Below are positions 1 through 64,000 of a DNA stretch of 64,000 bases, piece by piece. Positions within the stretch are counted from its first letter, which is position 1; the number at the start of each line of letters is the position of its first letter. The notes below the pieces were generated by a model that was given only the letters and a program-made list of their open reading frames with translations, had not been told where the DNA came from and searched no databases. Source of the DNA: Myxococcota bacterium (lineage in GTDB: Bacteria; Myxococcota_A; UBA9160; SZUA-336); the NCBI GenBank assembly GCA_035498875.1, contig DATJZP010000061.1:172614-236613 (forward strand), in the 5' to 3' direction. Made by a program: the position numbers and the translations under genes.

Positions 1-588
1 CGCCGCGTGCAGCACGTACCAGACGGCGCGAATGTCGGCGAACGAGCCGAGCGCGAGCGCCGCGCGCGGCAGCAGCAGGAACGGCGGCGGATACTCGAAT
101 GGGTCGTCGAGCCAGTCGCGCAGGTCGGGCACGGGTGAGTCGACGTCGACTTGCGCCGGACCGTGCAAGCCCCGGAACGCCGGGTACCAGCGCTCGTCGT
201 ACAGGTTCGGCTCGCCGCGCCGCGCGAGGTCGGCCGCGTGCACGTAGGCCGACATGCACTGGTGCTGCGCGGTGAAGGAGTCGGGCACCACCGAGCCCGC
301 GACCTGTTTCCAGTCGGCCATGAATTCCGAGCGCCGGGCGAGCTCGGCGGCACTCACCAGTGAGAGCGCGATCCAGACCAGCGCCAGTCCGCGGTGTCGG
401 CGCACCGAGCCGCGCAAGCGCTCCGGTAGGTGCCGCGCGAGAAACCACGCGCCGAGCGCGCAGGCAACTGCTGCCTCGCCGGCCGAGATCGCGCCCGCGC
501 GCGCGGCAACCGGGACCGCGATCGCCGCGGCGCACAGCCCCGCGAGCCCGGCGACTCCCGCGCGTTCCCAGCCCAATCCACGCCGCAC
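1..588 (-). CDS. Membrane protein of unknown function, N-terminal part; the gene runs off the left window edge
   Basis: The minus-strand frame is open from GTG at 586-588 to position 1. It is absent from the ORF track because no stop lies in the window. Third-position GC is high. My translation is VRRGLGWERAGVAGLAGLCAAAIAVPVAA...DDPFEYPPPFLLLPR. It is divergent from the TetR gene. Confidence 0.4.
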   Translation of the reverse strand, partial: MRRGLGWERAGVAGLAGLCAAAIAVPVAARAGAISAGEAAVACALGAWFLARHLPERLRGSVRRHRGLALVWIALSLVSAAELARRSEFMADWKQVAGSVVPDSFTAQHQCMSAYVHAADLARRGEPNLYDERWYPAFRGLHGPAQVDVDSPVPDLRDWLDDPFEYPPPFLLLPRAALALGSFADIRAVWYVLHAA

Positions 589-647
589 CCACGAAACGTA
601 GCTCGTGCGACAATCCCGCGCGCCGGGAATTCCAGCTGGAGAAGAAA

Positions 648-1223
648 GTGGATCAACTGCTGAGCGAGCGAGAGACGCGGATCGTGGCGACGGTGATGGC
701 ACTGGCGGAAGAGGGCGGCTTCGAGGCCGTCCGGCTGCGCGACGTGGCCGCCCGCTCTGGCGTGGCGCTGGGCACGCTGTATCGACACTTTCGCGGCAAG
801 GACGACTTACTGGTGGCGGCGCTGGCGCTCGAGGCCGAGTCGCTGGCGCTGCGCATGCGCGAGAATCCGCCCGCTGGCGCCACGGCGCTGGAGCGCGCGG
901 TCGCATTCTTCGAGGCGGCGACCCAGGCGCTGTGTCACCGCCCCAAGCTCACGCGCGCGATCCTGCGCGCCGCCTGCTCCGACGATCCCGAGCTCGCCGC
1001 CAAGATCCGCGCCTTCCACGGCTTCGCGAGCGATCTCCTGATCAGCGCGATCTGCGCGAACCCGAGCGCGACGCTCGCGAACGCCACCCCGCGCGAGGCG
1101 CGCATCAGCAACATGCTGCAGGCGGTCTGGTTCGCGGCGATGCTCGGCTGGATGAGCGCGCAGTACAAGCAGGAAGAGGTGGTCGAGCAGGTGCGCAACG
1201 CCGCCGAGCTGGTGCTCGGCTAG
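648..1223 (+). CDS. TetR/AcrR family transcriptional regulator
   Basis: GTG at 648 follows GGAGAAGAAA. The N-terminal HTH reads RIVATVMALAEEGGFEAVRLRDVAARSGVALGTLYRHFRGKDDLL. The upstream part of ORF 360..1223 is Arg/Pro-rich junk. Confidence 0.85.
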   Translation: MDQLLSERETRIVATVMALAEEGGFEAVRLRDVAARSGVALGTLYRHFRGKDDLLVAALALEAESLALRMRENPPAGATALERAVAFFEAATQALCHRPKLTRAILRAACSDDPELAAKIRAFHGFASDLLISAICANPSATLANATPREARISNMLQAVWFAAMLGWMSAQYKQEEVVEQVRNAAELVLG

Positions 1224-2368
1224 AGCGCCCCGGCCATCCGCTCCAGGATCTGGGTCAGGATCGCGCGCGAGGTCGCGAAGTTCAGCCTCACGAAGCCGCG
1301 GCCCTGCACGCCGAATCGGCGCCCGTCGGAGAGCGCCACGCGCGCCCGATTCAGGAAGAAGTCGTAGGGCGCCTCGCCGCCGAGCTCGAGCGCCGCGCAG
1401 TCGAGCCAGGCCAGATAGAGTGACTCCGGCGTGAAGTGCACCACGCCCGGCAGGCGCTTCGCCACGAACTCGGCCAGGAAGCGGCGGTTCCCGTCCAGGT
1501 AGGCGAGCACGTCGTCGAGCCAGGGCTGGCACGAGCTCCAGGCGATCTCGGTCGCGGCCAGGCCGAAGCTGCCGAGGCCCCCCCGCACGTGACTGGGGAC
1601 GCTCTTGAAGCGCTCCAGGAGCGAGTCACTGCCGAACGCCGCCACCGCGCAGCGCAGCCCGGCGATGTTGAAGCCCTTGGTGGCCGAGGTGAGCGTGACG
1701 GTGCGCGCCTCGACCTCGGGTCCGAGCGACGCGAACGGGATGTGGCGGTGGCCGGGGTAGACCAGGTCGCACTGGATCTCGTCGGAGACCACGATCCAGT
1801 CGCGCTGCAGGGCGACCTGCGCCAGTCCTTCGAGCTCGCGCCGCGTGAACACGCGGCCGGTCGGATTCTGCGGGTGACACAAGAGCAGGATGCGGGCGCT
1901 CGAGTCGGCGCTGCGCAGCTGGTCGAGGTCCAGCTCGTAGCCGCGCGGCCCGCGCACCAGCGGGTTGGTCAGGAGCGCGCGCTGTGACTCGCGCACGGCG
2001 TCGAAGAACGGCGGATACACCGGCGGCTGGATCACCACGCCGTCGCCGGGCGACGACAGCGTCTGCAGCGCGACGTAGATGCCCTGCACCACGTCCGTCA
2101 GCACCAGCACGCGGCGGGGATCGACGGTCCAGCCGAAGCGCTCGAGCGCGCGCTTGGCGAACACCGTGGGCAGCCCCTCGGGGGTGGGATTCTGCGGGTA
2201 GCCGAGGTCGTGGATCGCCACGCGCTCCGCGAGCTGCTTGGCGATCGCCGGCGCGACCGGGAAGTCCATGTCCGCGACCCAGGCTGGGATCACGTCGGCG
2301 GGATAGTCCTGCCACTTCTCGCCGCGCCGGCGGCGCAGCTCGGTCAGGTCGAGCTCGTCGAAATTCAC
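1220..2368 (-). CDS. PLP-dependent aminotransferase class I/II, MalY/PatB-like (cystathionine beta-lyase type)
   Basis: Sequence FDELDLTELRRRRGEKWQ..DVIPAWVADMDFPVAP...TSATKGFNIAGLR, including a PLP-lysine context. The GTG start at 2368 abuts the addA stop. Confidence 0.8.
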   Translation of the reverse strand: MNFDELDLTELRRRRGEKWQDYPADVIPAWVADMDFPVAPAIAKQLAERVAIHDLGYPQNPTPEGLPTVFAKRALERFGWTVDPRRVLVLTDVVQGIYVALQTLSSPGDGVVIQPPVYPPFFDAVRESQRALLTNPLVRGPRGYELDLDQLRSADSSARILLLCHPQNPTGRVFTRRELEGLAQVALQRDWIVVSDEIQCDLVYPGHRHIPFASLGPEVEARTVTLTSATKGFNIAGLRCAVAAFGSDSLLERFKSVPSHVRGGLGSFGLAATEIAWSSCQPWLDDVLAYLDGNRRFLAEFVAKRLPGVVHFTPESLYLAWLDCAALELGGEAPYDFFLNRARVALSDGRRFGVQGRGFVRLNFATSRAILTQILERMAGAL

Positions 2369-5300
2369 GCGGGCGATTCTAACGGCAGGCGCTCGCGTTG
2401 GCCGGTGCGCAGCCACACTAGCTCGAGCCGCGGCGGCGGCTCACTCGGGAAGAGACGCGCCACGCCGCGCGCGTACACCGCGAGCTGCGCGCGGTAGCGC
2501 GCGCGCGAGTCGTGGTCCGGGGCGCGGTCGGTCTTGTAGTCGGCGACGACCAGCGCGCGGTCGACGGGATCGCGGTACAAGAGGTCGAGCGTGCCGCTCC
2601 AGACACGACCGTCCGGCTCGCGGAACAAGAGCGGCAGCTCGCGCCCCAGTATCTCGACGCCGCGCAGCGCGCGCGGCAGCTCGCTCGCCAACATGGCCTC
2701 GAGGGCGGGCTCGGCCTCCGCCAGGACCTCGGCTTCGGGCGCGCCGGCCAGACGGGCGGCGCGAGTCACCGCGGCGCGCAGCAGCGCGCGGGCGGTGTCG
2801 GGTCCCTTCAGGTTCCAGCGCTCCATCAGCTCGTGCAGCGCCGTGCCCACGGCGCGGGCGCGCGCGCGGGCGGCGGCGACGCGGGCAGGCAGTGACTCGT
2901 CGCGGTCGGCGCCGGGCGCGGCGTGCTCCTCGTCTTCGGGCGCGAGGCCGGACGGGCGCTGCAGCGCGGGGCGCACGGCGGCCGCGGCGCGTTCCGAAGC
3001 CGTGCGCGTGCGCTCGAGCCGCGCGAGAGAGTCACAGGCAGCGCGCGGCAGCGGCGCTGCAGCGCTCGCGGCCGGCTCGACGAAGCTGCGCTCGAGCAGC
3101 GCTTCATCGCGAAAGCTCGCGATCAACGCGCCGAAGGTGCGCTCCGCTGCCTTCTGCGTGCGGTTCGCCACCGCGAAGATCAGACGCTCCCGCGCGCGGG
3201 TCGCGGCCACGTACAAGAGCCTGCGAGTCTCTGCGTCGTCGTGGATCTCCTCGCGCGCCTGTCTCGAGACCCAGCTCGACGACAACGCCGCGCGCGTGCG
3301 GATCGCGAGCGCACCCCGCGCGCGGTCGAAGCGCACGTCGATCCCCAGCCAGTCGCCCGCGCCCGGAGGCGTCTTGCGCGCCAGGTCGGGCAGCACCACG
3401 ACGTCGAACTCCAGGCCCTTCGCGCCGTGGATCGACAGCACGCGCACGGCGTTGCTGTCGGGCACGGGCTCCTCCGAGGCTCGGCGCTGCTCTTCGCGCG
3501 CGAGCGAAGTCACTAGGCGCACGAGGTCACGGTCGGGCGCGCCGGCCGCCCGCGCAGTGAGTCGCTCGAGCAGCGCGGACAGGTCGGCGAGCCTGCGGAC
3601 TCCGTCGCGCGCGCCTGCATGGAGCGCCAGCAAGGGCGTCTCGTCCGCCAGCGCCGCCAACACCCGATCGAGCGGCTCGCTGCGGACGCGCGCGTGCCAC
3701 TCGCGCAGGAACGCGAAGGCGCGCGCCAGGTTGGGCACGCTCCCCGGGTCGGGCCGCGCGCTGGTGAAGAGCCAGCGCCCGCCATTGCGGGTGGCGTGCG
3801 CGGCCAGCTCCGCGTCGGGCACTCCGCCGAGCGGCGAGCGCAGGAAGCCGATCACGGCCGGGCCGTCGGCAGGGTTGGCCAGCGCGCGCAGCAGCGCAGT
3901 CACTTGCTGGGAAGCCGGCTCGCGGTCTGGCTCCTCGGCCCGCCCGACCCAGACCGCGATGCCGCGCTGCTGCAGCGCGCGCACGTAGACGTGCGCGTCG
4001 CTGAGTGCCCGCAAGAGCAGCGCCACCTGGCCCGGCTGGAAGCGCCCCGCCGTCGCTTCGCCCGCGATCCAGCCTGCGATCACCTCGGCCTCGAGCTCGC
4101 GCGAGTCCCCGGCGCTGGCGGCCTCGGCACCGATCGTCCAGCGTTCGACGCGCGGCTCTCGCGCCGGCTCACGGCGCGCTTCCAGGCCGTCGTAAGTCAC
4201 GTATGCGCCGGGTGCCTCGGCGTCGGCACCCGGCGGAGGCTCGAAGCTGTGCTGGAACAGCCGGTCGAGCGGCTGCACGAGCTCGGGCCGCGAGCGGAAA
4301 TTCGCGGTCAAAACGAGCCGGGCACCGCCGTCGCCGAGGATGCGCGTGACTGCGCTCTCGTAGGCGGAGATGTCGGCACCGCGGAAGCGGTAGATCGCCT
4401 GCTTGGGATCGCCCACGATGAACAGCCGGCCGGGCGGCAGCGCTGCGCCGCGTTCAGCGGCGACCAGGAACACGATCTCGTACTGCAGTGGGTCGGTGTC
4501 CTGGAACTCGTCGAGAAACAGCACCCGGTAGCGCTCCGCGACCTCCGCGCGCACGCGCGGGTGAGTCAGCAGGAGGTCGCGGGCGAGTGCCAGCAGCGCG
4601 TCGAAGGGCAGGAGCCCGGAGCGCTTGGCCTCGCGCTGCACCTGGCGCGCGAACGGTCGCACCAGCGCCAGCGCCTCGCCGAGCAGCGCGTCGTCGACTT
4701 GGCGCAGCTTGTCGAGGGTGGGGCGGAGCTCCTTCACCAGGGCCTCGGCTTCGGGCGCCTTCTTGCTGGTCGGCGCGCTGCCTTCGAACAGGCCGCGGAT
4801 CCCGCGGCTGCCGGCGTAAGTCGCAGCCACGAGCGCCGGCTGGAAGGCTTCTCCCGATTGCAGCAGCGCTTCGAGCGGCCGACGCGCCTCGTCGAGCCAG
4901 CTCTCGGGGCCGGGCGCGATCGGCGGCCGGAGCACGCGCTCGATCCGCGCCAGCGACGCGCGCGCCCAGTCCCCGAACACGGCGGCCAGCTCCGGCAGCG
5001 GAGCGTCGAGCGCATCCTCGCGCACCGTGAAGGCAGCGGCGGCGCGCGCTAGTGACTCGAGCTCGCCCAGGCCCAGGCGCTCGAGCACCCGCGCGAAGCG
5101 CTCGCGCTGCGCGCCGTCGACCCCGTCCGGGCCGGCCAGGAAGCGCTCCCACAGCTCGTCGACCAGCTCGTCGACGCGCTCGCCGGTGTCGATCGAGAGC
5201 TCGGGTCCGACGCCGGACTCGATCGGGTGGCGGCGGAGCAGGCGCGCGCAGAAGCCGTGGATGGTCGTGACCTCGATCTCCGCGAGCCCGTGCACGCCGC

Positions 5301-5643: not shown

Positions 5644-8560
5644 CGAGGTCCGCCAGCGCATAGAAGCCCCGCCCCTGGTCGCTCGTCGTGACTCGCGCGC
5701 GGGAGGGCGGATGACGGATGCGGCACGCCACCGTGTAGTCGCAGAAGCGGCACTCACCGTCCTTGGCCGCGATCGGGTAGAAGCCGCGATCGAGCAGCCC
5801 ACCCAGCTCGGACAGCGCTGGCTCGGAGAGTGTCTCGAGCTCGGCGAGCTCGCGCTCGCGCTCGATCTCGCGCTTCCGATCGCGATCGCGCTCCGGGCGC
5901 AGCGGCACGGTCAGGACCTCGGCGGTCACGTTCCCGGCGCCCGCGCCCTGGGCGGCCATGCGCGCATACAGCGGCAGCTGCAGCGCCAGCCCGCGCTGGA
6001 TCCGGGTCTTGGACAGCGGCTTCTCGAAGGAGCGTCCCGTCTTGTAGTCGCCGATGCGGAGCCCGCCATCGGCCAGCGCGACCACGCGGTCGATCGTGCC
6101 CTTCACGGCCAGGACGCTGCCGCCCACCCGGAGGGTCGCGGTGGCATCCCGTTCCGGCGCCAGACGAGTCACTCCGCGGTGCATCAGCTCCGGCAGGTCG
6201 CGCTCCAGGAAGTCGGCGAGCGCGCGGGTCACCGTGGTCAGGAACGCGCCCCAGACCGTGGGGTGCCGCTCGCTCACCCGCTTGCGTTCGGAGTCGGCCG
6301 TGGCGCTCTCGAGCGCGGCCGGCAGCATGGCGCGTGCGCGGCGCAGGGCGACCGCCGGGTCCGCTCCGGCCTCCAGCAAGCCGGCCTCGAACAGCGTTCC
6401 GTACACGGTCTCCAGCGCATGGTGGATGAACGAGCCGATCTCGTTGGCCTCGAGCTCGTCGGCGCCCGGTGACTCGAGCGGGCGGACCACCAGCAGATGT
6501 CGAAAGAACGCGCGCAGCGGACACTGACCGAGCTCCTCCAGCGCGGTCACCCGGAGCTCCGCGGGCAGCGCGAGCGCCGCCCCGACCTCGGCGTCGTAGG
6601 GCAGGGACGGGTCGCTCATGCGATCGGTGTGTGTCACGAGCGCCCGGCCCGCGCGGAACGGCGCCGCGCCGGCGGGCGCCGCCGCGGCGATGGCTTCGGC
6701 CTGGCCCGCATCGCCGGCGCACACCGCCTGCACGAGCGCGTCGCCGGCGCGCGCGAAGTCAGGAGTGAGCGACTCCCAGGTAGTCACTTCGGCCGCCAGC
6801 ACGTCCGTGCCCGGAGCGGCGAAGGGCAGCACGTGCAGCAGCGCAGAGGGCGTCTGCGCGCGACCCAGTGAGTCGCTCTCGTAGTAGGAGAGCGTCACCC
6901 GTTCGCGCGCCTGCGCCAGCAGCAGCCCGAGCAGGAAGCGCTCCTCCCGCTCCGCCCGGGCACTCACCGGAACCGGGCGCCGGCTGCGCGAGCGCAGGGT
7001 CTCGCGCAGCCCGTCGGGAAGGAACGGGTCCTCTTGCACCACGCGCGGCCAGGCGCCGTGCACGAGCCCGACCAGGAACAAGTGCCCACAGGGCAGCGCG
7101 CGCGCCTGCACGGCGTCGAGCACCTGGACCGTCCCGCCGTCTTCGGCGGCGAAGGCTTGACTCACCAGCTCGTGCAGCGCCGACTCGAAGGCCCGGTCGA
7201 GGTCCGCTCGCGTCGGCTCGCGGCTCGCCCCCGCGGCGGAGCGCACGGCGTCGAGCGCGGACACGGCCGCGAGCGCGGGGCGCACGCGTTCCGCGTTCTC
7301 CGCGCCCAGGAGCTCGGCACCCACGCGCGCGAGACACTCGGCCGCCGCCGAATACGATCGGGCCGAAGCCAGCTCCGCGGCGCCCGCGACCAGGGCGTCG
7401 AGCAGGCGCGCGAGCGCCGCGCGCTCGATCCCGGGCGACAGTGTCTCGAGCGCCGCGCGCCAGTCCTTCTCGCCGCGCACGACGCCGCCCTGGCGCGCGG
7501 CCCGCTCGCCGAACGCGGCCAGCGCGGGGACGAGATCGGGAGCAGCGCGCAGACGCCCGGAGTCGAACAGCCGCACCAGCGCTGCGCGCGGCAGGTCGAG
7601 CACGAGCGCGCGCGCGAGCTCCAGCCAGACCCGCAGCGCCGGATCGGCGATCGCCGGCCGGGTGAGCGAGGAGCTCCACGGAATGCCATAGCCGCCCAGC
7701 GTGCTCTCGAGCCAGGGCGCGTAGGGATCGAGCGTGCGCGCGACGATCTGGATCTCGTCCGGCGGGACGCCTTCGTCGGCGATCAGCCGCAGCACCTCGC
7801 GCGCCACGGCCTCGAGCTCGGCCCGCGGCGAGCGGGCGCGGCGCACGCGCAGAGTCTCCGCAGTGACCTCGCCACCCGGTGTGAGCGCGGGCTGCGCGAC
7901 CGTCTCCACCGCTTCGACCGGGAAGCGCCAGCTCCACTCTTCGCGCAGCCGCGCCGCGTACTCACTCTGGAAGTCGGGCTGGAAGAAGCGAAAGGCCTCT
8001 CCCGGAAACGACTCGGCGACCTTCTCGACCAGGTCGCCCACCGAGCCCACGAGCTCGGTCGCGCCGTGCACCTCGACGCGCGTGAACTCGCGGCGCGCGA
8101 GATGCGCCCGCGCGCCGCGCAGGGCCAGGCGGAAGAGGCCCACGCGGTCGAACAGCCCCTGCTTCTCGAGCCGCGCCAGCGCGGCCTCGAAGGCCGAGTA
8201 AGTCGCGGCGAGCTCCGAGGCGCCACCCGGCAGGGCGCTCGGCGGCACGCCGGCATCGCGCAGGTCGCGCAGGGTCGCGGCCAGCGCACCCGCCAGCGCG
8301 GGCCGCTCCGCGAGTCTCTCGCCGAGCGCGCCGCGCCCGTGCGCGCAGGCCGCGGCCAGCTCGGCGGTCGCGCTCGCGCCGAGCAGCGCACGCACCGGCA
8401 CGTCGGTCTCGGCCGCGCAGCGCTCGGCCAGTCCGCGAAACGTGACGAACTCGCGGCCGAGCAGCGCACCGGAGCCGGACTGCGCGAGCGCATGCAGCCG
8501 TCGCGCGCGCAGCACGCGCGTCGACGCGGCGATCTCGAGGACGCGCTCTACGCCACTCAC
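5636..8560 (-). CDS. addB: Helicase-nuclease subunit B (AddB-like, PD-(D/E)XK nuclease with Fe-S cysteines)
   Basis: 974 aa. The C-terminal motif is GTIDRVVALADGGLRIGDYKTG. The cysteines QCPLRAF ... GECRFCDYTVAC match the AddB iron-sulfur staple pattern. It lies directly upstream of addA. Confidence 0.8.
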   Translation of the reverse strand: MSGVERVLEIAASTRVLRARRLHALAQSGSGALLGREFVTFRGLAERCAAETDVPVRALLGASATAELAAACAHGRGALGERLAERPALAGALAATLRDLRDAGVPPSALPGGASELAATYSAFEAALARLEKQGLFDRVGLFRLALRGARAHLARREFTRVEVHGATELVGSVGDLVEKVAESFPGEAFRFFQPDFQSEYAARLREEWSWRFPVEAVETVAQPALTPGGEVTAETLRVRRARSPRAELEAVAREVLRLIADEGVPPDEIQIVARTLDPYAPWLESTLGGYGIPWSSSLTRPAIADPALRVWLELARALVLDLPRAALVRLFDSGRLRAAPDLVPALAAFGERAARQGGVVRGEKDWRAALETLSPGIERAALARLLDALVAGAAELASARSYSAAAECLARVGAELLGAENAERVRPALAAVSALDAVRSAAGASREPTRADLDRAFESALHELVSQAFAAEDGGTVQVLDAVQARALPCGHLFLVGLVHGAWPRVVQEDPFLPDGLRETLRSRSRRPVPVSARAEREERFLLGLLLAQARERVTLSYYESDSLGRAQTPSALLHVLPFAAPGTDVLAAEVTTWESLTPDFARAGDALVQAVCAGDAGQAEAIAAAAPAGAAPFRAGRALVTHTDRMSDPSLPYDAEVGAALALPAELRVTALEELGQCPLRAFFRHLLVVRPLESPGADELEANEIGSFIHHALETVYGTLFEAGLLEAGADPAVALRRARAMLPAALESATADSERKRVSERHPTVWGAFLTTVTRALADFLERDLPELMHRGVTRLAPERDATATLRVGGSVLAVKGTIDRVVALADGGLRIGDYKTGRSFEKPLSKTRIQRGLALQLPLYARMAAQGAGAGNVTAEVLTVPLRPERDRDRKREIERERELAELETLSEPALSELGGLLDRGFYPIAAKDGECRFCDYTVACRIRHPPSRARVTTSDQGRGFYALADLDD

Positions 8561-8569: not shown

Positions 8570-9715
8570 TTAGCGCACCTTGCGGAAGAACGCGCGGACG
8601 TCCTCGACCAGGAGCGCCGGCTCCTCGAGCGCAGCGAAGTGACCGCCCTTCTCGAACACGCTCCAGTGCCGCAAGTCGAAGGCGGCCTCGGCCCACTTGC
8701 GCGGCGCCTTGTAGATCTCCTTGGCGAAGATCGCCCCGCCCGTCGGCACGTTGATGCGCTCGCCGGCCGGCCCGAAGCGGCCGGTGTGCATGGTCTCGTA
8801 GTAGAGCCGGGTCGACGACGTGATCGACTGGGTCACCCAGTAGATCATGATGTTCGTGAGCAGCTCGTCCTTGCTGAAGCGCGATTCGACGTTCCCGCGG
8901 GTGTCGCCCCAGGTCTGGAACTTCTCGACGATCCAGGCCGCGAGGCCGGCCGGTGAGTCGTTCAGGCCGTAGCCCAGTGACTGGGGTTTGGTGCCCTGGA
9001 TCTGCTGGTAGCCGGTCTCGTTCTTGGTGAAGTTTCCGACCTCGCCCATCCAGGCCAGCTCCTGCGGCGACACGCCCTCCATCGGGTTGGCGACGCCGGC
9101 GGGCGGCCCGGCCACCACCATGTTCATGTGGATGCCCGCGCAGTGACTCGGATCGATCCGGCCCACGTGCGCGGTGGCGATCGCTCCCCAGTCACCGCCC
9201 TGCGCGCCGTAGCGCGCGTAGCCGAGCGCGGCCATCAACGCCTTGTTCGTCTCGGCCACCTCCGAGATGTCGAAGCCGGGCTTGCGCGGCGCCTGGCTCC
9301 AGCCGTAGCCGGGCATCGACGGACACACCACGTGGAAGGCGTCTTCCTTCTTGCCGCCGTGCGCGACCGGGTCGGTGAGCGGGCCCAGAATCTTGTGGAA
9401 TTCGAACACCGAGCCCGGCCAGCCGTGCGTGATCACCAGCGGAAATGCGTTCGGCTCGCGCGAGCGCTCGTGGATGAAGTGGATGTCGAGGTCGCGCGCG
9501 GTCGTCTTCCAGTGACTGAACCGGTTCAGCGCCGCCTCGTGCACGCGCCAGTCGTATTTATCGCGCCAGTAGCCGAGCAGGTCGCGCAGGTACGAAAGCT
9601 CGGTGCCGTAGGTCCAGCCCGCTCCTTCGAGCTGGTCGGGCAGGCGCGTGCGCGCGAGCCGCTGCTTCAGGTCTTCGAGCACGGCGTCCGGAACCTGGAT
9701 CTGGAAGCGCTGCAT
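8570..9715 (-). CDS. Epoxide hydrolase (microsomal-type N-terminal domain plus alpha/beta hydrolase fold)
   Basis: Sequence MQRFQIQVPDAVLEDLKQRLARTRLPDQLEGAGWTYGTELSYLRDLLGYWRDKYDWRVHEAALN...ITHGWPGSVFEF. Confidence 0.85.
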   Translation of the reverse strand: MQRFQIQVPDAVLEDLKQRLARTRLPDQLEGAGWTYGTELSYLRDLLGYWRDKYDWRVHEAALNRFSHWKTTARDLDIHFIHERSREPNAFPLVITHGWPGSVFEFHKILGPLTDPVAHGGKKEDAFHVVCPSMPGYGWSQAPRKPGFDISEVAETNKALMAALGYARYGAQGGDWGAIATAHVGRIDPSHCAGIHMNMVVAGPPAGVANPMEGVSPQELAWMGEVGNFTKNETGYQQIQGTKPQSLGYGLNDSPAGLAAWIVEKFQTWGDTRGNVESRFSKDELLTNIMIYWVTQSITSSTRLYYETMHTGRFGPAGERINVPTGGAIFAKEIYKAPRKWAEAAFDLRHWSVFEKGGHFAALEEPALLVEDVRAFFRKVR

Positions 9716-11275: not shown

Positions 11276-11305
11276 GGCGTCCGTCGTGACTCGCGCGCAC
11301 GGGGG

Positions 11306-24253: not shown

Positions 24254-24315
24254 GTCGCCTCCAGTGACTGCGCCATTCTGCCAGAAGCCCGGCGATTCGA
24301 GCTAGAATTGGGCGT

Positions 24316-44653: not shown

Positions 44654-44711
44654 GGATCCCCTCCCGAGTTGCGAACCATACCACTTACGGCTCGAGCCGT
44701 GGGGCGGATTC

Positions 44712-47180: not shown

Positions 47181-47190
47181 CGCCCTGCTC

Positions 47191-48138: not shown

Positions 48139-48185
48139 ACGAAGGGATGTTACGAGCCGAAGGGGCGGATCGGTTTTTGTTTTCT

Positions 48186-55120: not shown

Positions 55121-55487
55121 GCTCGGGCAGCACGCGCGCGAAGAAGTCGCGATCGCCCGCGAAGGTCGGCTCGAGCGCGAGAAACTCGGGCCCCGTGACC
55201 CAGCGCGCGGCGCTCACCTCGTCGGGCTGGAGTCGCAGGTCGCTCGCACCCGCGCGCAAGAGCGCGGTCCACCAGTGCAGTCGGAAGCGGCCGTCGTCGG
55301 TCGGACACTCGAAGACCTTCCGGCCGACAGTGACTTCGAGGCCGAGCTCCTCGCGCACCTCGCGCACCAGCGCCTGTGCCTGGCTCTCACCGGGCTCGAT
55401 CCGGCCCGAGGGCAGTGACCACCAGCCGCTGAACGGCCCGCGCGGCCCGCGCTGGATCGCGAGCACGGCGGCGCCGCGCAGGATCAC
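55110..55487 (-). CDS. NUDIX hydrolase
   Basis: The Nudix box is GRIEPGESQAQALVREVREELGLE. Confidence 0.85.
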   Translation of the reverse strand: MILRGAAVLAIQRGPRGPFSGWWSLPSGRIEPGESQAQALVREVREELGLEVTVGRKVFECPTDDGRFRLHWWTALLRAGASDLRLQPDEVSAARWVTGPEFLALEPTFAGDRDFFARVLPELSR

Positions 55488-57264: not shown

Positions 57265-57945
57265 ATGCAGAGCGAGACGGCCGAGCCCAAGCCGCTGCGG
57301 CGGCGCGATCCGGACCGCCCCTGGTACTCGTTCGCCGCACGGCTGCTGCCCGACGGCCCGCTCGGGCGCTGGGCCGACCTGGGCTGCGGCCGCGGTGAGT
57401 TCATCGAGCAGGCGTCCGGCGACGGCAAGAGCGGGATCGGCGTCGACTACGCGACCTCGAGCGCCAAGGCGCTGCGGGCCACGGGCCGGCCGGCGCTCGT
57501 CGCCGACCTGAACCGCGGGCTGCCCTTCGCCGACCAGTCACTCGACGGCGCCTCGCTGATCGAGGTGATCGAGCACATCGTGCAGGCCGAGACCCTGGTG
57601 GCCGAGCTGGCGCGCGTGATCCGGCCCGGCGGCTGGCTGATCGTGACCACGCCCAACGTCGTGCACATCGCCTACCGCTGGCGCGCGCTGACCGGTCACC
57701 CGCCCAAGCAGGAGGGCTACCACTACCGCTTCTTCACGCGCGACACGCTGGCGCAGATCTTCGCCGAGGCCGGCTTCCGAGTGACTGCCCAGGCCTCGTT
57801 CGGCAAGCAGGCGCTGCTCTCGAAGCTGGCGCGGATCGCCGGCAAGGGCGCGAAGCACAAGGTGCGCTACGTGGTGCCGCGCCCGTTCGAGCCGCTGCTC
57901 GCACAGCACTTCGTCTGGCGCCTGGAACGGCTGCCCGCGCGGTAA
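57265..57945 (+). CDS. Class I SAM-dependent methyltransferase
   Basis: Contains WADLGCGRGEF and DGASLIEVIEHI. Confidence 0.75.
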   Translation: MQSETAEPKPLRRRDPDRPWYSFAARLLPDGPLGRWADLGCGRGEFIEQASGDGKSGIGVDYATSSAKALRATGRPALVADLNRGLPFADQSLDGASLIEVIEHIVQAETLVAELARVIRPGGWLIVTTPNVVHIAYRWRALTGHPPKQEGYHYRFFTRDTLAQIFAEAGFRVTAQASFGKQALLSKLARIAGKGAKHKVRYVVPRPFEPLLAQHFVWRLERLPAR

Positions 57946-57955: not shown

Positions 57956-58495
57956 ATGAGCCGTCTTTTGCTCGTGCGGCACTGCCAGTCCTCGGGCCAG
58001 CACCCCGATGCGGCGCTGACCGAAGCGGGACACGTCCAGGCGCACGCGCTGGCCGAGAGACTCTGCGAGCTTCCGATCGACCGGATCGTGGCCAGCAGCT
58101 ACCGCCGCGCGCGTGCCACGCTCGCGCCGCTCGCCGGCCGGCTCGGCCTCGACCTCGAGCTCGACGATCGACTGGTGGAGCGCCGGCTGTCGCCTGCGCC
58201 GATCGATCACTGGCGCGAGGTGGTCGAGCGCTCGTTCAGCGAGCCCGACTTCTGCGTGCCCGGCGGCGAGTCGGGGCGCGAGACGCTCGAGCGCGGCTGG
58301 AAGGCGCTGGAAGCGATCTTCGACGCGGGTCACACGCTGCCGGTGGTGGCGAGTCACGGCCAGCTGATCTCGATCGTGCTGCACCGGATCGACCCGAGCT
58401 TCGGCTTCGCGGGCTGGCAAGGGATGGCCAACCCGGACCTGTTCTGGCTCGAGCGGGACGCGGGCGGCCGCGTCTCATGGAGGAGGAGCCCTTGA
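57956..58495 (+). CDS. Histidine phosphatase (phosphoglycerate mutase) family protein
   Basis: Sequence LLLVRHCQSSG ... ESGRE ... VVASHGQL. Confidence 0.8.
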   Translation: MSRLLLVRHCQSSGQHPDAALTEAGHVQAHALAERLCELPIDRIVASSYRRARATLAPLAGRLGLDLELDDRLVERRLSPAPIDHWREVVERSFSEPDFCVPGGESGRETLERGWKALEAIFDAGHTLPVVASHGQLISIVLHRIDPSFGFAGWQGMANPDLFWLERDAGGRVSWRRSP

Positions 58496-58854: not shown

Positions 58855-59423
58855 CGATCGGGCTGCGCGTGAAGACCGCGCGCGCCACCGCCGTGCTGGT
58901 GGGCGACCCCGCCCAGCCGCGCGCGCTCGAGCGGCGCGAGCTCGTGCTCTACGACCCCGACGTGCCGCATTCGGGCCAGCCGTATCACCTGGAGCTCGAG
59001 CTCGCGGCGTCCGCGGCGGCCCCGCTGCTCGCCAAGGCGCTGGCCGCGGTGCGGCGCGTGGGCAAGCGCGAGCTCGCCGGGCTGGTGGAGTCACTCGCGC
59101 GCACGGGCGTCTCCGTGCGCGGAGTGGGGCTCGTCGCCGGCAGTCTGGGCGATCCGCAGAAGCTCGGGAACCCGCACGTGCGCGCGCACGCGCTCGAAGG
59201 CAGGCTCTATTGGAGCGTGCTCGAGGAATCCGCGCGAGAGCTCGGAGTGGCCTGCTCGGTCACGACCGAGAAGGAGATCTGGGCGCAGGCGGCCAAGTCA
59301 CTCGGCCGCCGGCCGGAGACGCTGCGCAAGGTGGTGGCGGAGTGGGGCCGCGCGCTGGGCCGGCCGTGGGGCGCCGAGGAGAAGAGCGCGGCGCTGGCCG
59401 CCTGGACGATGCTCAGCGCTTGA
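58836..59423 (+). CDS. Hypothetical protein
   Basis: 195 aa with good third-position GC. I recognise no family. Confidence 0.5.
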   Translation: MPLAGVAIGLRVKTARATAVLVGDPAQPRALERRELVLYDPDVPHSGQPYHLELELAASAAAPLLAKALAAVRRVGKRELAGLVESLARTGVSVRGVGLVAGSLGDPQKLGNPHVRAHALEGRLYWSVLEESARELGVACSVTTEKEIWAQAAKSLGRRPETLRKVVAEWGRALGRPWGAEEKSAALAAWTMLSA

Positions 59424-59762
59424 GCTCCGCGCGCGCGAGCCAGGGTGCCCGGGCTCGCTCCGCGAGAGCGCGTCGCGCAGCCAGTCACACGCGGTGAGCT
59501 CGCCTCTGCGAAATTCGGGCGCGAGATGGGGGACGCCGCGCGGGTCTCGGAGAATCACGGAGGCCAGCGGCCGCCGAATCGCGAGCAGCCTGCGGAACCG
59601 CCAGTCACTTCCACGGCGTCGTCGAGGACGATCTGGAAGGACCACGGGCGGCCGCTGCGCCGTCATCAGACGTCGTTCACCTGGGGCGGCACGGTCTCGC
59701 CCGGCGCGAGCTCGCTCAGCACGTTTGCAGCTCGAAAGTGACCCGTCTACGCTGGCCCGGGC

Positions 59763-60788
59763 ATGGCCCGGATCTACCACCTGGTGACCGCGCCCGAGCT
59801 GCTCTCGGGGCTCGCCGCGAATCACTACACCCCGGCGCGTTTCGCGGAGGACGGCTTCGTGCACTGCTGCGCCGACGAGGCCAGCGCGCTGGCGGTCGCG
59901 CGCGACTACTTCGCGGCTGCGGCCGACCCGCTCTTGGTGCTGGCGCTCGACACCGCGCGGCTGGACGCAGCCTGCGTGTTCGAGGCGCCCGCGCCGCTGC
60001 CGGGCGCGGGCCGCGCGCACCTGGCCACGGCCGAGAAGTTCCCCCACGTGCACGGGCCGCTCGCGCTGCGTGCGCTGCGCGGGGTGGGGACGCTTGGGCG
60101 CCGCGGGAGAGACTTCGCCTGGCCCGCCGCGCTCGGCAGTCTCGGCGAGTCACTCGCCGGTGCGCTCGCAGAGCGCCTGCGCGCGCCCGAGCACGCGGGC
60201 CTGGCCGGGCTGCGCCGGCTGCGGCGCGAGACTTCGCGGCGGCTCGTGCGAGCGCCCGGGCGGCTGGTGCTCGAGCTCGGCCAGTCTCTCGTCGCCACGG
60301 GCGGGATGCGCGAGCGGGTGCTGGGCAGCGAGCTGGTGCTCCATCACCCCGAGGCGCTGGGCAAGCTACGGGTCCGCGATGCGAAGAGACTCGCGGGCAA
60401 GCTCGCGAGCTGGGCCGACGTGGACGTGTTCGCCTGCGCCATCGCGGGCCAGGCTTTTCGCGACGGCCGCATCCCCGAGGCCGAAATCCTGCGCTGGGCG
60501 CGCTCTCGCGATCCGTTCTGGCGTCGCGCCGCGCTGGTCAGCACGGTGCCCCTGAACGTGCGCGCCCAGGGCGGAGCCGGCGATGCGCGCCGCACGCTGC
60601 GCATCTGCCGCGCGCTGCTGGGCGATCGCGCCGACCTGGTGGTGAAGGCGCTGTCGTGGGCGCTGCGCGCGCTGGCCGAGCGCGATCCCGCAGCGGTGGA
60701 GAGATTCGTCGGCGCACAGCGCGCCAAGCTCGCCGCGCGCGTGCTGCGCGAGGTGGGCACGAAGCTCCGGACCGGTCGGAAGAATTGA
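59763..60788 (+). CDS. Fusion protein: N-terminal DUF952, C-terminal DNA-alkylation-repair (AlkD/AlkC-like HEAT) domain
   Basis: The N-terminus is MARIYHLVTAPEL...DGFVHCCADE...FPHVHGPL (DUF952 pattern). The C-terminus is WADVDVFA...SRDPFWRRAALVSTV...DLVVKALSWALRAL (PF08713-like pattern). Confidence 0.65.
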   Translation: MARIYHLVTAPELLSGLAANHYTPARFAEDGFVHCCADEASALAVARDYFAAAADPLLVLALDTARLDAACVFEAPAPLPGAGRAHLATAEKFPHVHGPLALRALRGVGTLGRRGRDFAWPAALGSLGESLAGALAERLRAPEHAGLAGLRRLRRETSRRLVRAPGRLVLELGQSLVATGGMRERVLGSELVLHHPEALGKLRVRDAKRLAGKLASWADVDVFACAIAGQAFRDGRIPEAEILRWARSRDPFWRRAALVSTVPLNVRAQGGAGDARRTLRICRALLGDRADLVVKALSWALRALAERDPAAVERFVGAQRAKLAARVLREVGTKLRTGRKN

Positions 60789-61602: not shown

Positions 61603-61604
61603 GC

Positions 61605-62084: not shown

Positions 62085-62087
62085 GTC

Positions 62088-62528
62088 GTGCCCGTCGAAG
62101 TGATCGGCATCGACCACGTGTATCTCGCGGTGACCGACCTCGCGCGCTCGAAGCGCTTCTACGACGGCGTCATGCGCGTGCTCGGCTACGCGCAGGCCGA
62201 ATCCGAGATCGCAGGCGATCCCCACGTCCACTACTACAACCGCCAGTTCGGCTTCTCGCTGCGCCCGGCCCGCACCCGGACGAGTCACGACCCCTATGCC
62301 CCGGGGCTGCATCACTTCTGCTTCCGCGTGCTGGACGAGCGCGCGGTCGATCGCGCCTATGAAGAGCTGCGCGCGCTGGGCGTCGAGCCGAGCGCGCCGC
62401 GCCGCCATCCCGAATACGCGCCCGACTACTACGCCACGTTCTTCGAGGACCCCGACGGAATCCGCCTGGAAATCACCAACTTCCGCGAGCAACGCCGGCG
62501 GCGCATGTACGACTGGGACGCGCGCTAG
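62088..62528 (+). CDS. VOC/glyoxalase family protein
   Basis: Sequence IDHVYLAVTDLARSKRFYDGVM...GLHHFCFRV...FEDPDGIRLEI. Confidence 0.8.
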   Translation: MPVEVIGIDHVYLAVTDLARSKRFYDGVMRVLGYAQAESEIAGDPHVHYYNRQFGFSLRPARTRTSHDPYAPGLHHFCFRVLDERAVDRAYEELRALGVEPSAPRRHPEYAPDYYATFFEDPDGIRLEITNFREQRRRRMYDWDAR

Positions 62529-62581
62529 CGCAGCAATGCGCTGCGCGGCGGAATGCCACAGCGGCCTTTACCCTGGGGTCC

Positions 62582-62968
62582 GTGACGACGCTCGATACCA
62601 CCATCCGCGCGTCCACGTACGGGAAGACGCCCACGGCGCTCGCCGCGCGGATCCACGAGTTCACCCGCGGCGAGCGCATGAAGCGCGGACTGCGCGCGTT
62701 CCTGCCGTACTTCGGCGCGGGCTGCGTGCTGTTGCTCTGCCCCCCGCACATCGTCTGGCTCTTGTTGTGGACCACGGTCGGCGTGGTGTTCGGGCGCAAG
62801 CGCTACCGGCAGCTACGCGAAATCGTGTCGCTGCGCGGCGCCTGCCCGGACTGCGGCAAGAGCGAGGACCTGAAGCCGCCCGACGTGCTGCCGGCCATTC
62901 AGCGTTGCGCCTCGTGCGGCGCCTTCCTGAAGCTGGAAGACACGGAGCCCGCGCCCGCGCTCGGCTAA
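62582..62968 (+). CDS. Small membrane protein with C-terminal zinc-ribbon
   Basis: Two TM segments are followed by CPDCGKSEDL...CASCGAFL. Confidence 0.5.
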   Translation: MTTLDTTIRASTYGKTPTALAARIHEFTRGERMKRGLRAFLPYFGAGCVLLLCPPHIVWLLLWTTVGVVFGRKRYRQLREIVSLRGACPDCGKSEDLKPPDVLPAIQRCASCGAFLKLEDTEPAPALG

Positions 62969-62983
62969 GTCGCCCGGTGAGGG

Positions 62984-64000
62984 TCAGCCGAAGCAGCGCA
63001 TCACTTCGAGCTCCCGCCCGGCGCGCACCTTCTCGTATTTGTTGAAGAACCCCAGGTCGATCCGCTTCGCCAGCCTGCTCACCTTGTCACTGCGGTAGCG
63101 CGTCAGCGCGCCGGGGCCGCCGTTGTAGGCGGAGTAAGTCGCGCGCACCAGGTCGTCGATCCCGCCGGGCCGCTTGTGCTCGCCCTTGGCGTAGGCCAGG
63201 TCGAGGTAGTAGCGGAGCAGGATCTCGCTGCCCGCGCGCGCGTTGTACGAGGGATCGGCGAGCAGGAAGCGCGGATCGTAGAAGCCGCGCCAGACGCGCG
63301 AGTTCACCTGCATGAGCCCGACCGCGCCGGCGTGGGAGCGAATCGCCCGCACCTCGCCGCGCACCCGCACGTATTGGCGCCAGCAGGTCTCCTGCCAGGC
63401 GGTCGCGAGCTGCAGGTCGAGATAGCCGCGGCGCACCGTCGGCTCGACCTGCTTGGGACTCACCGCGTCTTCCGCCGCTCCGCGCAAGAGCCTCTGCATC
63501 AACGGCAGATAGTCGTTCAGCTCGCTGCGCGCCGGGGCCCAGCCGCGCAGCCGCTTCTCCTCCTCTTTGGTGAGTCGCGGCACCGCGCTCGGGCGCTCGG
63601 CGGCGTGCGCCGCCGGCACGAGCCAGGCCGCGAAGCGGCGCAGCGCGGACCGCCACAGCGTCTGGTTCGGATCCGGGCTCGGAGCGGGCGGTGTGGCATC
63701 GGGCGGAGGCGCGGACTCGTCGAAATCCGCGGGCGGAGTCAGCGGAGCTCCGAAATCGAGCGCGCGTCGCAGCTCGGGGTCGACGCCCTCGGGCGCCTCG
63801 AGCGGGTCGCTCTTGTCCGCGGGCGCGATCACGCGCGCCATGCGGCGCAGCCCGTCGCTGGTGAGCTCGAAGCCGAACTCCGGGCCCAGCGCGTCGAGCG
63901 CAGCCAGCGCGTCGCCCGCGGCGATGAAGCCCAGATAGCGCAGCACGCCGCGGCTGCCGAGCTTCGGCCCGAGCTCGCGCAGCACCGCGCCCAGCCGTTT
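62984..64000 (-). CDS. Lytic transglycosylase (SLT domain); partial, continuing beyond the right window edge
   Basis: Sequence GAVGLMQVNSRVWRGFYD...YNARAGSEILLRYY...ATYSAYNGGPGAL. The frame stays open through position 64000. Confidence 0.75.
   Translation of the reverse strand, partial: KRLGAVLRELGPKLGSRGVLRYLGFIAAGDALAALDALGPEFGFELTSDGLRRMARVIAPADKSDPLEAPEGVDPELRRALDFGAPLTPPADFDESAPPPDATPPAPSPDPNQTLWRSALRRFAAWLVPAAHAAERPSAVPRLTKEEEKRLRGWAPARSELNDYLPLMQRLLRGAAEDAVSPKQVEPTVRRGYLDLQLATAWQETCWRQYVRVRGEVRAIRSHAGAVGLMQVNSRVWRGFYDPRFLLADPSYNARAGSEILLRYYLDLAYAKGEHKRPGGIDDLVRATYSAYNGGPGALTRYRSDKVSRLAKRIDLGFFNKYEKVRAGRELEVMRCFG

Follow-up and report, generated by a model that had tools for sequence, protein, structure and literature searches.

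What makes a word of seven bases recur about once per kilobase in the DNA of an uncultured bacterium? The question is raised by a stretch of 64,000 nt from a Myxococcota bacterium (contig DATJZP010000061.1 of assembly GCA_035498875.1, positions 172,614 to 236,613; the whole stretch is called the window), in which an earlier note had pointed out the heptamer GAGTCAC and its complement GTGACTC. Very few bacterial groups are known to carry hyper-abundant short words, and the origin of the best-known palindromic one, the highly iterated palindrome HIP1 of cyanobacteria, has been debated for 30 years between selection, repair bias and uptake. Our analysis leads us to read GAGTCAC as the strongest sub-word of the near-palindrome GAGTSACTC (core AGTSACT, inner GTSAC; S is G or C), a clade-specific, HIP1-like highly iterated palindrome that would be the site of an enzyme and would have been spread by biased fixation; we give this reading a probability of about one half. 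A literature search found no mention of these words in bacteria and no HIP-like word described for Myxococcota.

From the heptamer to the near-palindrome

An exact recount gave 61 sites in the window, 30 GAGTCAC and 31 GTGACTC on the plus strand, as the earlier note had counted them; its coordinates were also right except for two, 53858 and 54471, each off by 10 and corrected here to 53848 and 54461. At the G+C content of the window (70.7%), base composition predicts 6.3 sites for both orientations together, which agrees with the 6-7 claimed before, while 100 dinucleotide-preserving shuffles gave 10.1 ± 3.1 sites with a maximum of 18 and Markov models of order 2 and order 3 gave 7.6 and 15.4, respectively. 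Depending on the null model, the heptamer alone is enriched 6-10-fold.

The 57 coding sequences (CDS) that we called from the GC1 > GC2 << GC3 pattern cover 82% of the window and contain 52 of the heptamer sites. Permuting synonymous codons across all genes left 5.2 ± 2.2 sites, permuting them within each gene left 7.8-8.3 ± 2.5 (z ~17) and permuting the order of codons left 4.2 ± 2.0, and for the whole word family the z-scores against codon-preserving nulls were 10-22. These nulls are conservative, because the rare codons made by the motif are retained in them. Heptamer density is 0.97 per kb inside the CDS calls and 0.86 outside, where about 10 sites lie. An artefact of codons or peptides, already doubted in the earlier note, is ruled out by the three types of codon-preserving shuffle, which leave 4-8 sites, together with the equal density outside CDS.

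The heptamer is, however, not the unit. Its maximal-order Markov expectation, 80 x 105 / 132 = 63.6, matches the count, so that this check, which had been proposed beforehand, traces the excess to the 5- and 6-mers while all the lower-order nulls fail; because its own 5- and 6-mers fully account for its count, the heptamer is a sub-word. Irreducible excess was found for AGTCA (132 vs 61 expected), AGTGA (142 vs 83) and TGAGT (94 vs 36). The earlier counts of one-mismatch neighbours were about right (GAGTCAG 14, CAGTCAC 25), but their description as much rarer was misleading, since several neighbours are themselves enriched 4-6-fold (GAGTGAC 44 vs 7.6, GACTCAC 37 vs 7.6, CAGTCAC 25 vs 6.3). AGTCACT/AGTGACT, that is AGTSACT, departs further from an order-2 background than any other 7-mer, with 51 occurrences vs 2.9 expected (17-fold, 0.8 per kb), and GAGTCAC comes second with 61 vs 7.6. 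AGTSACT is self-complementary, and GAGTSACTC is identical on both strands except for the centre base. After GAGTCAC a T follows at 27 of the 61 sites, and a further C completes GAGTSACTC. In comparison with dinucleotide shuffles, the exact 9-mer occurs 15 times vs 0.8 expected (19-29-fold), 9-mers with one mismatch 67 times vs 19 and those with two mismatches 227 times vs 198, and mismatches are tolerated most at the outermost position. The heptamer as the true unit was rejected on both grounds, its count being explained by sub-words and AGTSACT and the 9-mer being enriched more.

The two arms of the palindrome belong together. AGT and ACT are paired in a single spacing and a single orientation, with 52 pairs at distance 4 and 0-8 at other distances, and given a GTSAC core the presence of one arm is associated with that of the other (2 x 2 table 51, 47, 35, 83; odds ratio 2.6, Fisher p = 0.0013). 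The counts of AGCSGCT (30), of intermediates with one T (19) and of AGTSACT (51) suggest cooperation, with a site mostly either fully formed or absent, rather than independent arms. GTSAC cores with neither arm number 83, close to our own composition-based estimate of ~80, suggesting that GTSAC is enriched only inside the extended word. Past the 9-mer the flanks have background composition, and neither a conserved sequence nor a hairpin of the repetitive extragenic palindrome or miniature inverted-repeat element type (REP/MITE) was found beyond the core; the sole flank signal is a preference for G/C at two bases 5' of the heptamer. A dispersed repeat of the REP/MITE class was rejected on account of these unconserved flanks.

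The earlier note had suggested a methylation- or repair-linked origin through the GANTC and GTSAC cores of the word. The GANTC hint lost ground, as GANTC as a whole is not enriched (GAGTC/GACTC 1.3-fold, GAATC/GATTC 1.0-fold) and only GANTCAC is; a CcrM-type GANTC target failed on this test. The GTSAC hint proved a good lead, GTSAC being enriched only in its extended context and documented as a target of N6-methyladenine (m6A) methylation. Repair of the Vsr type found no support, since the T-variants of the motif cytosines are not depleted (GAATCAC 3.1-4.4-fold, GAGTTAC ~5-fold, GAGTCAT 1.1-fold). GAGCCAC, on the other hand, is depleted (0.2-fold).

All reading frames that are available to the heptamer are used, as had been stated before. 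On the sense strand there are 18 sites in frame 0 (GAG TCA Cnn), 4 in frame 1 and 13 in frame 2 (nnG AGT CAC), and on the antisense strand 11 in frame 0 (GTG ACT Cnn), 5 in frame 1 and none in frame 2, which is empty because a TGA stop closes it. The absence of a plus/minus skew was confirmed (30:31), and so was the weak preference for the sense strand (35-36 sense vs 16 antisense sites). This preference does not differ significantly from a 3:2 expectation (p = 0.20) and is largely due to the closure of one antisense frame by TGA, and the mirror word GAGTGAC has the opposite strand bias, as the TGA account predicts. Sites of the word family occur in every 4-kb bin, including the lower-G+C mtr cluster; the overall density is about 1 heptamer or 2 AGTSAC sites per kb. 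Their spacing is more regular than chance would give, with coefficients of variation of gap length of 0.69 for AGTSACT (p = 0.0024) and 0.81 for AGTSAC (p = 0.0046), whereas the value of 0.85 for the heptamer alone is not significant. The lack of polarity and the use of all frames support the earlier comparison with an uptake-signal-type or genome-signature word and not with a polar Chi or KOPS (FtsK-orienting polar sequence) element, and identity with Chi or KOPS was rejected for lack of polarity in the window.

The word imposes itself on codon choice and on protein sequence. The earlier note had seen that it forces rare A/T-ending codons, and in motif contexts this was confirmed for TCA, AGT and ACT: in E-S-[LHQPR] the serine is TCA in 18 of 37 cases, compared with 0 of 39 in other E-S contexts and 5.7% of all serine codons; in S-H it is AGT in 20 of 31, compared with 4.7% elsewhere, and AGC in only 1 of 31; and in V-T-[LPQRH] the threonine is ACT in 13 of 31, compared with 6.7% after residues other than valine. 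The peptides that the motif can encode are about twice as frequent as reverse-order controls (ES[LHQPR] 37 vs 18, SH 31 vs 19, VT[LPQRH] 31 vs 16, and a fourth 16 vs 8). The word belongs to the double-stranded DNA itself and not to any protein or RNA.

Relatives of the window and the gain of sites

About 150 related loci were screened, 80 fetched with DnaE2 and 80 metagenome loci with LigD. The closest DnaE2 relatives are metagenome-assembled genomes (MAGs) of uncultured Myxococcota or 'delta proteobacterium'. Among the 80 DnaE2 loci only L001 (DATJZN01, SMAG_U15179; 86% amino-acid identity) matches the density of the window, with 0.78 per kb; L002 (CAVPRM01, MFD10007.bin.2.43; 85%) and L005 are weakly enriched and the others are at expectation. 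Among the LigD loci, L081, L082, L083, L088 and L100 (77-81% identity) are motif-rich, with 0.7-1.7 per kb, L132 is borderline (a short contig, with 2 GAGTCAC and 2 AGTSACT in 4.6 kb), and L111, L084, L098 and all the more distant ones are not enriched. In 79 kb from seven other motif-rich contigs the top 7-mers were AGTSACT (50 vs 4.2) and GAGTCAC (76 vs 11.8), and the 9-mer was found 23 times vs 0.9 expected. The 14 motif-poor relatives whose G+C is similar, L111 among them, gave 18 GAGTCAC vs 19.8 expected and 8 AGTSACT vs 5.0 in a pooled 282 kb. Conservation in related genomes, a check put forward in the earlier note, had a divided outcome, with the word repeated in seven relative contigs and at expectation in 14 others, and a general trait of G+C-rich Myxococcota was rejected because the 14 closest motif-poor loci, pooled, are at expectation.

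In a distance tree of LigD the window and the five clearly motif-rich contigs form one clade, with (L111, L132) as its sister; L111 is a motif-poor contig of the sister clade with ~80% nucleotide identity. The word is specific to one clade of uncultured Myxococcota and was derived after its split from motif-poor sisters. Lineages have dialects: L001 favours TGAGTCAC and also the palindrome TGASTCA (10 vs 1.0), and L088 and L161 favour GACTCACTC/ACTCACTC. The word GAGAACAC, tried as an alternate word in L003, turned out to be a coding repeat W-(Y/H/W)-E-N-T-D-G in one large gene (L003 18425-21065) and not genome-wide.

Two other samples (ENA ERZ27256511 and SRR8881008) have yielded independent assemblies of the window species, with 99.9% identity (L161/L162). 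The k141-named contig L161, which comes from another sample, matches the window at 99.95% identity and adds 8.5 kb at the same density. Between window positions 59514-64000 and L161/L162 there are six differences at five distinct positions, none of them in motif sites; two are G>C and the remainder G>A or C>T. An artefact of long-read basecalling was rejected, as L161 has the same sites and many gains alter an amino acid.

The window sites are seldom found in motif-poor relatives: 1 of 42 site-by-relative comparisons kept the site, compared with 25% for 7-mers with three A/T, although the 42 comparisons are not independent because only ~20 distinct sites are involved. In motif-rich relatives 13 of 41 were kept. 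Words one base off the motif in a motif-poor relative corresponded to the exact motif in the window in 11 of 68 cases (16%), compared with 1.3% for controls consisting of 120 words of the same composition, and words two bases off did so in 1.07% vs 0.09%. In the reverse direction, from near-cognates in the window to the exact motif in the relative, there was no excess (1.3% vs 1.25%). The flow of near-cognates into the motif is thus about 12 times that into control words.

Single gains illustrate how diverse the changes are. They include synonymous C>T gains (AGC CAC to AGT CAC at 12718 and 25944), three synonymous changes at 14630 (CGC GTG ACG CTA to CGA GTC ACT CTC), replacement of Thr by Ser at 14085 (GAG ACA to GAG TCA), of Ala by Ser at 29487 (GAG GCG CTG to GAG TCA CTG) and of Lys by Ser at 28806 through three adjacent changes (AAG to TCA), and four adjacent changes at 30290 (CGCGCAC to GAGTCAC, with CGCGCAC or CGCACAC in 7 of 7 aligned relatives). 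Both transitions and transversions are represented. The conversion of near-cognates has been directional and has involved all types of substitution; it ran counter to codon preference and sometimes to the amino acid of the ancestor. Mutation bias is insufficient as an explanation because every substitution type contributes, and very-short-patch repair is insufficient because T-variants of the motif cytosines are not depleted; on the same two grounds an origin through deamination and Vsr was rejected.

Sites in the window and neighbouring genes

The coordinates of the 61 heptamer sites and of the core palindromes that lie outside them are collected in the table.

Table. Positions of GAGTCAC sites and of AGTSACT cores in the window, with their location and their state in relatives
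Position	Strand	Word	Location	State in relatives
1420..1426	-	GAGTCAC in full 9-mer GAGTCACTC	CDS	
1623..1629	+	GAGTCAC(TG), contains AGTCACT	CDS	
1984..1990	-	GAGTCAC(AG)	CDS	
2763..2769	+	GAGTCAC(CG)	CDS (AddA-like)	
2892..2898	-	GAGTCAC(TG), contains AGTCACT	CDS	
3029..3035	+	GAGTCAC(AG)	CDS	
5052..5058	-	GAGTCAC(TA), contains AGTCACT	CDS	
5688..5694	-	GAGTCAC(GA)	CDS	
6166..6172	+	GAGTCAC in full 9-mer GAGTCACTC	CDS	
6469..6475	-	GAGTCAC(CG)	CDS	
9143..9149	-	GAGTCAC(TG), contains AGTCACT	CDS	
10385..10391	+	GAGTCAC(GG)	CDS	
11286..11292	-	GAGTCAC(GA)	outside CDS calls	
12426..12432	-	GAGTCAC(TG)	dnaE2	common to L002; absent in L001, L003-L005
12718..12724	-	GAGTCAC(GC)	dnaE2, GAG AGT CAC	AGC in all relatives (synonymous C>T gain)
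14085..14091	-	GAGTCAC(TG)	dnaE2	common to L001; GAGACAC/GAGACGC in poorer relatives (Thr>Ser)
14469..14475	+	GAGTCAC(CA)	dnaE2, antisense	
14630..14636	-	GAGTCAC in full 9-mer	dnaE2, CGA GTC ACT CTC	L001 CGC GTG ACG CTA
15770..15776	-	GAGTCAC in full 9-mer	CDS	
16911..16917	+	GAGTCAC(GG)	outside CDS calls	
17388..17394	+	GAGTCAC in full 9-mer	outside CDS calls	
18943..18949	+	GAGTCAC in full 9-mer	CDS	
19355..19361	+	GAGTCAC(GA)	outside CDS calls	
19864..19870	-	GAGTCAC(CC)	outside CDS calls	
21895..21901	-	GAGTCAC(CG)	CDS	
23704..23710	+	GAGTCAC(CA)	CDS, antisense	
24697..24703	+	GAGTCAC(GC)	CDS	not in L083
24931..24937	+	GAGTCAC(GT)	CDS	common to L083
25023..25029	+	GAGTCAC(TT), contains AGTCACT	CDS	not in L083
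25413..25419	+	GAGTCAC(CG)	CDS	
25944..25950	-	GAGTCAC(TA), contains AGTCACT		common to L082, L083, L132; motif-poor L111 GAGCCAC
26250..26256	-	GAGTCAC(AG)	CDS	common to L082
28806..28812	+	GAGTCAC in full 9-mer	ligD, GAG TCA CTC	GAG AAG CTC (Lys>Ser)
29377..29383	-	GAGTCAC(AG)	ligD, antisense	common to L081
29487..29493	+	GAGTCAC(TG)	ligD, GAG TCA CTG	GAG GCG CTG (Ala>Ser)
30290..30296	+	GAGTCAC(TT)	ligD	CGCGCAC/CGCACAC in 7/7 aligned relatives; changes on window lineage
32265..32271	+	GAGTCAC(AC)	CDS	
32516..32522	+	GAGTCAC in full 9-mer	imuB-like, antisense	common to L081, L088, L100
32949..32955	-	GAGTCAC in full 9-mer	imuB-like	common to L081
35077..35083	+	GAGTCAC in full 9-mer	CDS, antisense	
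35266..35272	+	GAGTCAC(CG)	CDS, antisense	
36897..36903	-	GAGTCAC(GT)	outside CDS calls	
37577..37583	+	GAGTCAC in full 9-mer	CDS	
37861..37867	-	GAGTCAC(GG)	straddles gene end	
39591..39597	-	GAGTCAC(TG), contains AGTCACT	CDS	
40890..40896	-	GAGTCAC(GG)	nitrile hydratase	L111 GACTCAC
41433..41439	-	GAGTCAC(GA)	nitrile hydratase	L111 sister word GAGTGAC
42067..42073	-	GAGTCAC(TT), contains AGTCACT	CDS, antisense	
43713..43719	+	GAGTCAC in full 9-mer	outside CDS calls	
47310..47316	+	GAGTCAC(GA)	multihaem cytochrome gene, antisense	
49237..49243	-	GAGTCAC in full 9-mer	outside CDS calls	
49897..49903	+	GAGTCAC(GG)	CDS	
51390..51396	-	GAGTCAC(CC)	CDS, antisense	
53644..53650	-	GAGTCAC(AA)	CDS	
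53848..53854	-	GAGTCAC(GA)	CDS	
54181..54187	-	GAGTCAC(GA)	CDS	
54461..54467	-	GAGTCAC(GA)	CDS, antisense	
58351..58357	+	GAGTCAC(GG)	CDS	
59088..59094	+	GAGTCAC in full 9-mer	outside CDS calls	
60147..60153	+	GAGTCAC in full 9-mer	CDS	
62282..62288	+	GAGTCAC(GA)	CDS	
3508..3514	.	AGTSACT core palindrome without heptamer		
3898..3904	.	AGTSACT core palindrome without heptamer		
6782..6788	.	AGTSACT core palindrome without heptamer		
8976..8982	.	AGTSACT core palindrome without heptamer		
9511..9517	.	AGTSACT core palindrome without heptamer		
15329..15335	.	AGTSACT core palindrome without heptamer		
20916..20922	.	AGTSACT core palindrome without heptamer		
22638..22644	.	AGTSACT core palindrome without heptamer		
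24263..24269	.	AGTSACT core palindrome without heptamer		
30349..30355	.	AGTSACT core palindrome without heptamer		
31908..31914	.	AGTSACT core palindrome without heptamer		
33734..33740	.	AGTSACT core palindrome without heptamer		
36402..36408	.	AGTSACT core palindrome without heptamer		
40633..40639	.	AGTSACT core palindrome without heptamer		
46046..46052	.	AGTSACT core palindrome without heptamer		
46276..46282	.	AGTSACT core palindrome without heptamer		
47687..47693	.	AGTSACT core palindrome without heptamer		
48792..48798	.	AGTSACT core palindrome without heptamer		
52963..52969	.	AGTSACT core palindrome without heptamer		
55329..55335	.	AGTSACT core palindrome without heptamer		
57536..57542	.	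AGTSACT core palindrome without heptamer		
57780..57786	.	AGTSACT core palindrome without heptamer		
59296..59302	.	AGTSACT core palindrome without heptamer		
59603..59609	.	AGTSACT core palindrome without heptamer		

By Pfam, the window encodes an AddAB-like pair, DnaE2, an ImuB-like protein, Ku and LigD, an MtrB/PioB porin with multihaem cytochromes, a nitrile hydratase and many small-molecule enzymes. Its set of DNA-repair genes is unusually dense and comprises, in order, AddA/AddB-like (2365-8560), DnaE2 (11824-14904), Ku and LigD (26650-30737), ImuB-like (32488-34071), an AlkB-like 2-oxoglutarate (2OG) oxygenase (35623-36234) and a DNA-alkylation-repair protein (59763-60788). In L003 and L004 imuB adjoins dnaE2; in the window the two are ~17 kb apart. 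An exact-sequence look-up of LigD returned no record. The region 43859-48258, with an outer-membrane porin of the MtrB/PioB type and a multihaem c-type cytochrome, looks like an extracellular electron transfer module; it lies in one of the two 4-kb bins of lowest G+C (66.8%) and has 1 exact heptamer and a normal density of the AGTSAC family. ARAGORN called a tRNA-Arg(tcg) at 3287-3365 within the AddA-like CDS and a tRNA-Glu(ctc) at 55134-55209 within a NUDIX CDS, both probably false positives, and Rfam gave no match anywhere in the window.

Some other words are over-represented in the window as well, namely CGAGCTCG (124 vs 32), CTCGAGC, AGCTCGA, CAGGAA and CTACTAC; these words, or close kin such as CGACTAC and TCAGGAA, also rank top in the motif-poor relatives (L003-L015, L111). 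As alternate words, CGAGCTCG and CTCGAGC were set aside as ordinary codon-pair effects common to the motif-poor relatives, and the other over-represented words are likewise codon-pair effects unconnected with the motif.

Candidate explanations and their bearing on the clade

In the reading that we favour, the palindrome would be recognised by a dimeric DNA enzyme specific to the clade, the likeliest candidate being a GTSAC-type m6A methyltransferase, and the outer GA..TC would be read by the same protein or by a partner protein. Variants that complete a site would be preferentially fixed, either through strand-biased repair or recombination or through preferential uptake and recombination of marked DNA, and by either route a molecular drive would result, levelling off near one site per kb. 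The m6A motifs listed for MAGs of anaerobic-digester and faecal metagenomes (Nanomotif supplement) include both GTSAC and GAGTC, so an enzyme of the required specificity class exists in nature, which is a lead and not a test.

The comparison with HIP1 (GCGATCGC) rests on several likenesses. In HIP1 the inner CGATCG or GATC shows enrichment only as part of the longer word, one-off variants deviate mainly at the ends, and some cyanobacterial lineages have alternate words matched by their own methyltransferases (PMC4390886). The Myxococcota word is likewise a short palindrome that occurs far above expectation, at least 15-fold (AGTSACT 17-fold, 9-mer 19-29-fold), at about one site per kb and in all coding frames as well as in non-coding DNA; its inner methyltransferase-type palindrome, here GTSAC, is enriched only with the outer bases, and its one-off variants deviate mostly at the outermost positions (PMC4390886). 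Both words are lineage-specific, related lineages using other words or none (PMC4390886, PMC5861425). The two differ in sequence and in host, which is a member of the Myxococcota and not of the cyanobacteria, and the Myxococcota word is of odd length with a degenerate centre base and contains A/T in a 70% G+C genome.

Several observations weigh against an enzyme site of the HIP1 kind. The enrichment of 8-29-fold lies at the low end of the HIP1 range of 15-300-fold. The symmetry is imperfect: in 152 kb of pooled motif-rich sequence (the window, L001, L081-L083, L088, L100, L132 and L161) GA[C/A]TCAC is enriched 3-4-fold but its mirror GA[C/A]TGAC is not (0.9-1.4-fold), and in the same pool GAGT-N-AC is enriched for all four centre bases (4.7-7.3-fold) and GA[C/A]T-x-AC only with a centre C. 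Pfam detected no DNA methyltransferase, Vsr nuclease or competence (com) gene in the window, no methyltransferase signature motif was found in ~155 kb of motif-rich sequence, and the enzyme itself is purely inferred. Elhai's model of GmeC-directed repair is inapplicable because the word has no GC dinucleotide. Finally, conservation of HIP1 sites exceeds the background (Xu et al., 2018; PMC5861425), whereas the Myxococcota sites show no excess conservation, all motif-rich pairs together keeping 62 of 159 sites (39%) compared with 35% of composition-matched 7-mers; for the 6-mer the values are 39.5% and 40.6% for controls. The power of this test is low, with a weak effect still possible, given a small sample and genomes of only ~80% identity. 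Individual sites appear to turn over instead of being kept singly.

The main rival, which we regard as somewhat unlikely, is a DNA uptake or self-recognition signal of the type of the uptake signal sequences of Pasteurellaceae and the DNA uptake sequences of Neisseriaceae (USS/DUS), with biased uptake by competent cells and homologous recombination producing a molecular drive without methylation. USS/DUS are more evenly spaced than random and equal in both orientations, and the tripeptides that they can encode are enriched (Findlay and Redfield; PMC2817400). The Myxococcota word resembles them in its density of ~1 per kb, equal orientations, use of all frames and even spacing, in the approximate doubling of its encodable tripeptides (as reported in PMC2817400), in its dialects at clade level (TGAGTCAC in L001, GACTCACTC in L088 and L161), in its accumulation by point mutation within existing genes, with a directional flow of near-cognates, and in having sites that are not individually conserved. 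Known uptake sequences are, however, non-palindromic 9-12-mers, enriched 200-1000-fold, under-represented in CDS and often arranged as dyad pairs at terminators (PMC2817400), whereas the present word is palindromic, enriched only 8-29-fold, equally dense in CDS and without dyad pairs at terminators; uptake bias has been shown by experiment for USS/DUS. The window yielded no com genes and the host clade is uncultured. HIP1 itself is now proposed as an uptake or recombination signal, since methylated HIP1 sites raise the transformation of Synechococcus 7002 more than 100-fold overall (10.1101/2024.09.10.611283) and a 2026 preprint proposes HIP1 as a cyanobacterial uptake signal (10.64898/2026.06.24.733823), and for this reason methylation of the HIP type and uptake would no longer be exclusive readings.

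The remaining explanations account for fewer of the observations. Selected sites of an abundant dimeric nucleoid-associated or chromosome-organising protein, acting in nucleoid structure or in SMC or condensin loading, would suit a degenerate palindrome with associated arms, evenly spaced and with a density independent of coding status, and HIP1 has been tied to chromosome architecture through its periodic distribution (PMC5861425). We consider such sites distinctly unlikely, as individual sites are conserved no better than background among motif-rich relatives, a sudden origin in one clade would be needed given the absence from L111 at ~80% nucleotide identity, and the cost in rare codons and amino acids is high for a structural role. 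A Chi-like hotspot at which the AddAB-type helicase-nuclease of the window would act, its abundance protecting the chromosome after double-strand breaks, gains some interest from the presence of the AddA/AddB-like pair and from the heptamer enrichment of ~8-fold, similar to that of E. coli Chi. Like Chi and like KOPS or architecture-imparting sequences, the word is an over-represented oligomer of 7-8 bases found chromosome-wide. Known Chi sites are non-palindromic 5-8-mers, and Chi and KOPS are polar, whereas the present motif is near-palindromic and unpolarised in the window (30:31), its orientation tracking the gene strand no further than expected from the TGA constraint. A signal read on one strand would not be expected to complete a palindrome or to have an equally enriched mirror word, GAGTGAC, and the motif differs between close relatives with similar AddAB, which together make a Chi-like role highly improbable.

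A by-product of composition, of codon or codon-pair usage, of mutation bias (deamination of methyl-cytosine with Vsr repair) or of sequencing error is already refuted by the shuffles and the motif-poor relatives. The agreement of the maximal-order Markov expectation with the heptamer count might speak for it, and the scarcity of GAGCCAC could suggest C>T conversion; yet the lower-order and codon-preserving nulls all fail, no excess is seen in relatives that are equally G+C-rich and share the codon habits, gains are of every substitution type, including multi-base changes, T-variants are not depleted, and the motif is found again in assemblies made separately from different samples, including the nearly identical k141-named contig. 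The Dcm/Vsr system of E. coli (CCWGG) is similar in that a short palindrome with a degenerate centre is raised in frequency by a sequence-specific DNA transaction and not by coding needs, but very-short-patch repair acts on T:G mismatches at one position and depletes T-variants, whereas the Myxococcota word gains at all positions and its enrichment is much larger.

What sets this case apart is its youth. With the word plentiful in one clade but no commoner than expected in a sister lineage of ~80% nucleotide identity, precursor states are still readable and the direction of change is measurable. A comparison of gene content between motif-rich and motif-poor sisters, together with methylation calls, could identify the enzyme, which has so far been impossible in cyanobacteria, where HIP1 is ancient. 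The finding also means that a process at the level of DNA can rewrite codon choice and insert serines proteome-wide, and in this clade the word can serve as a marker with which to bin sequences and to match mobile elements with their hosts. More tentatively, GAGTSACTC might be a methylated, genome-wide 'self' tag, recently evolved in one clade of soil Myxococcota, read in uptake, recombination or repair and spread by molecular drive. If so, it would be the first system of the HIP or USS kind outside cyanobacteria, Pasteurellaceae and Neisseriaceae, and a simple comparison of gene presence and absence with the motif-poor relatives, within the clade and immediately beyond it, should then reveal the gene responsible.

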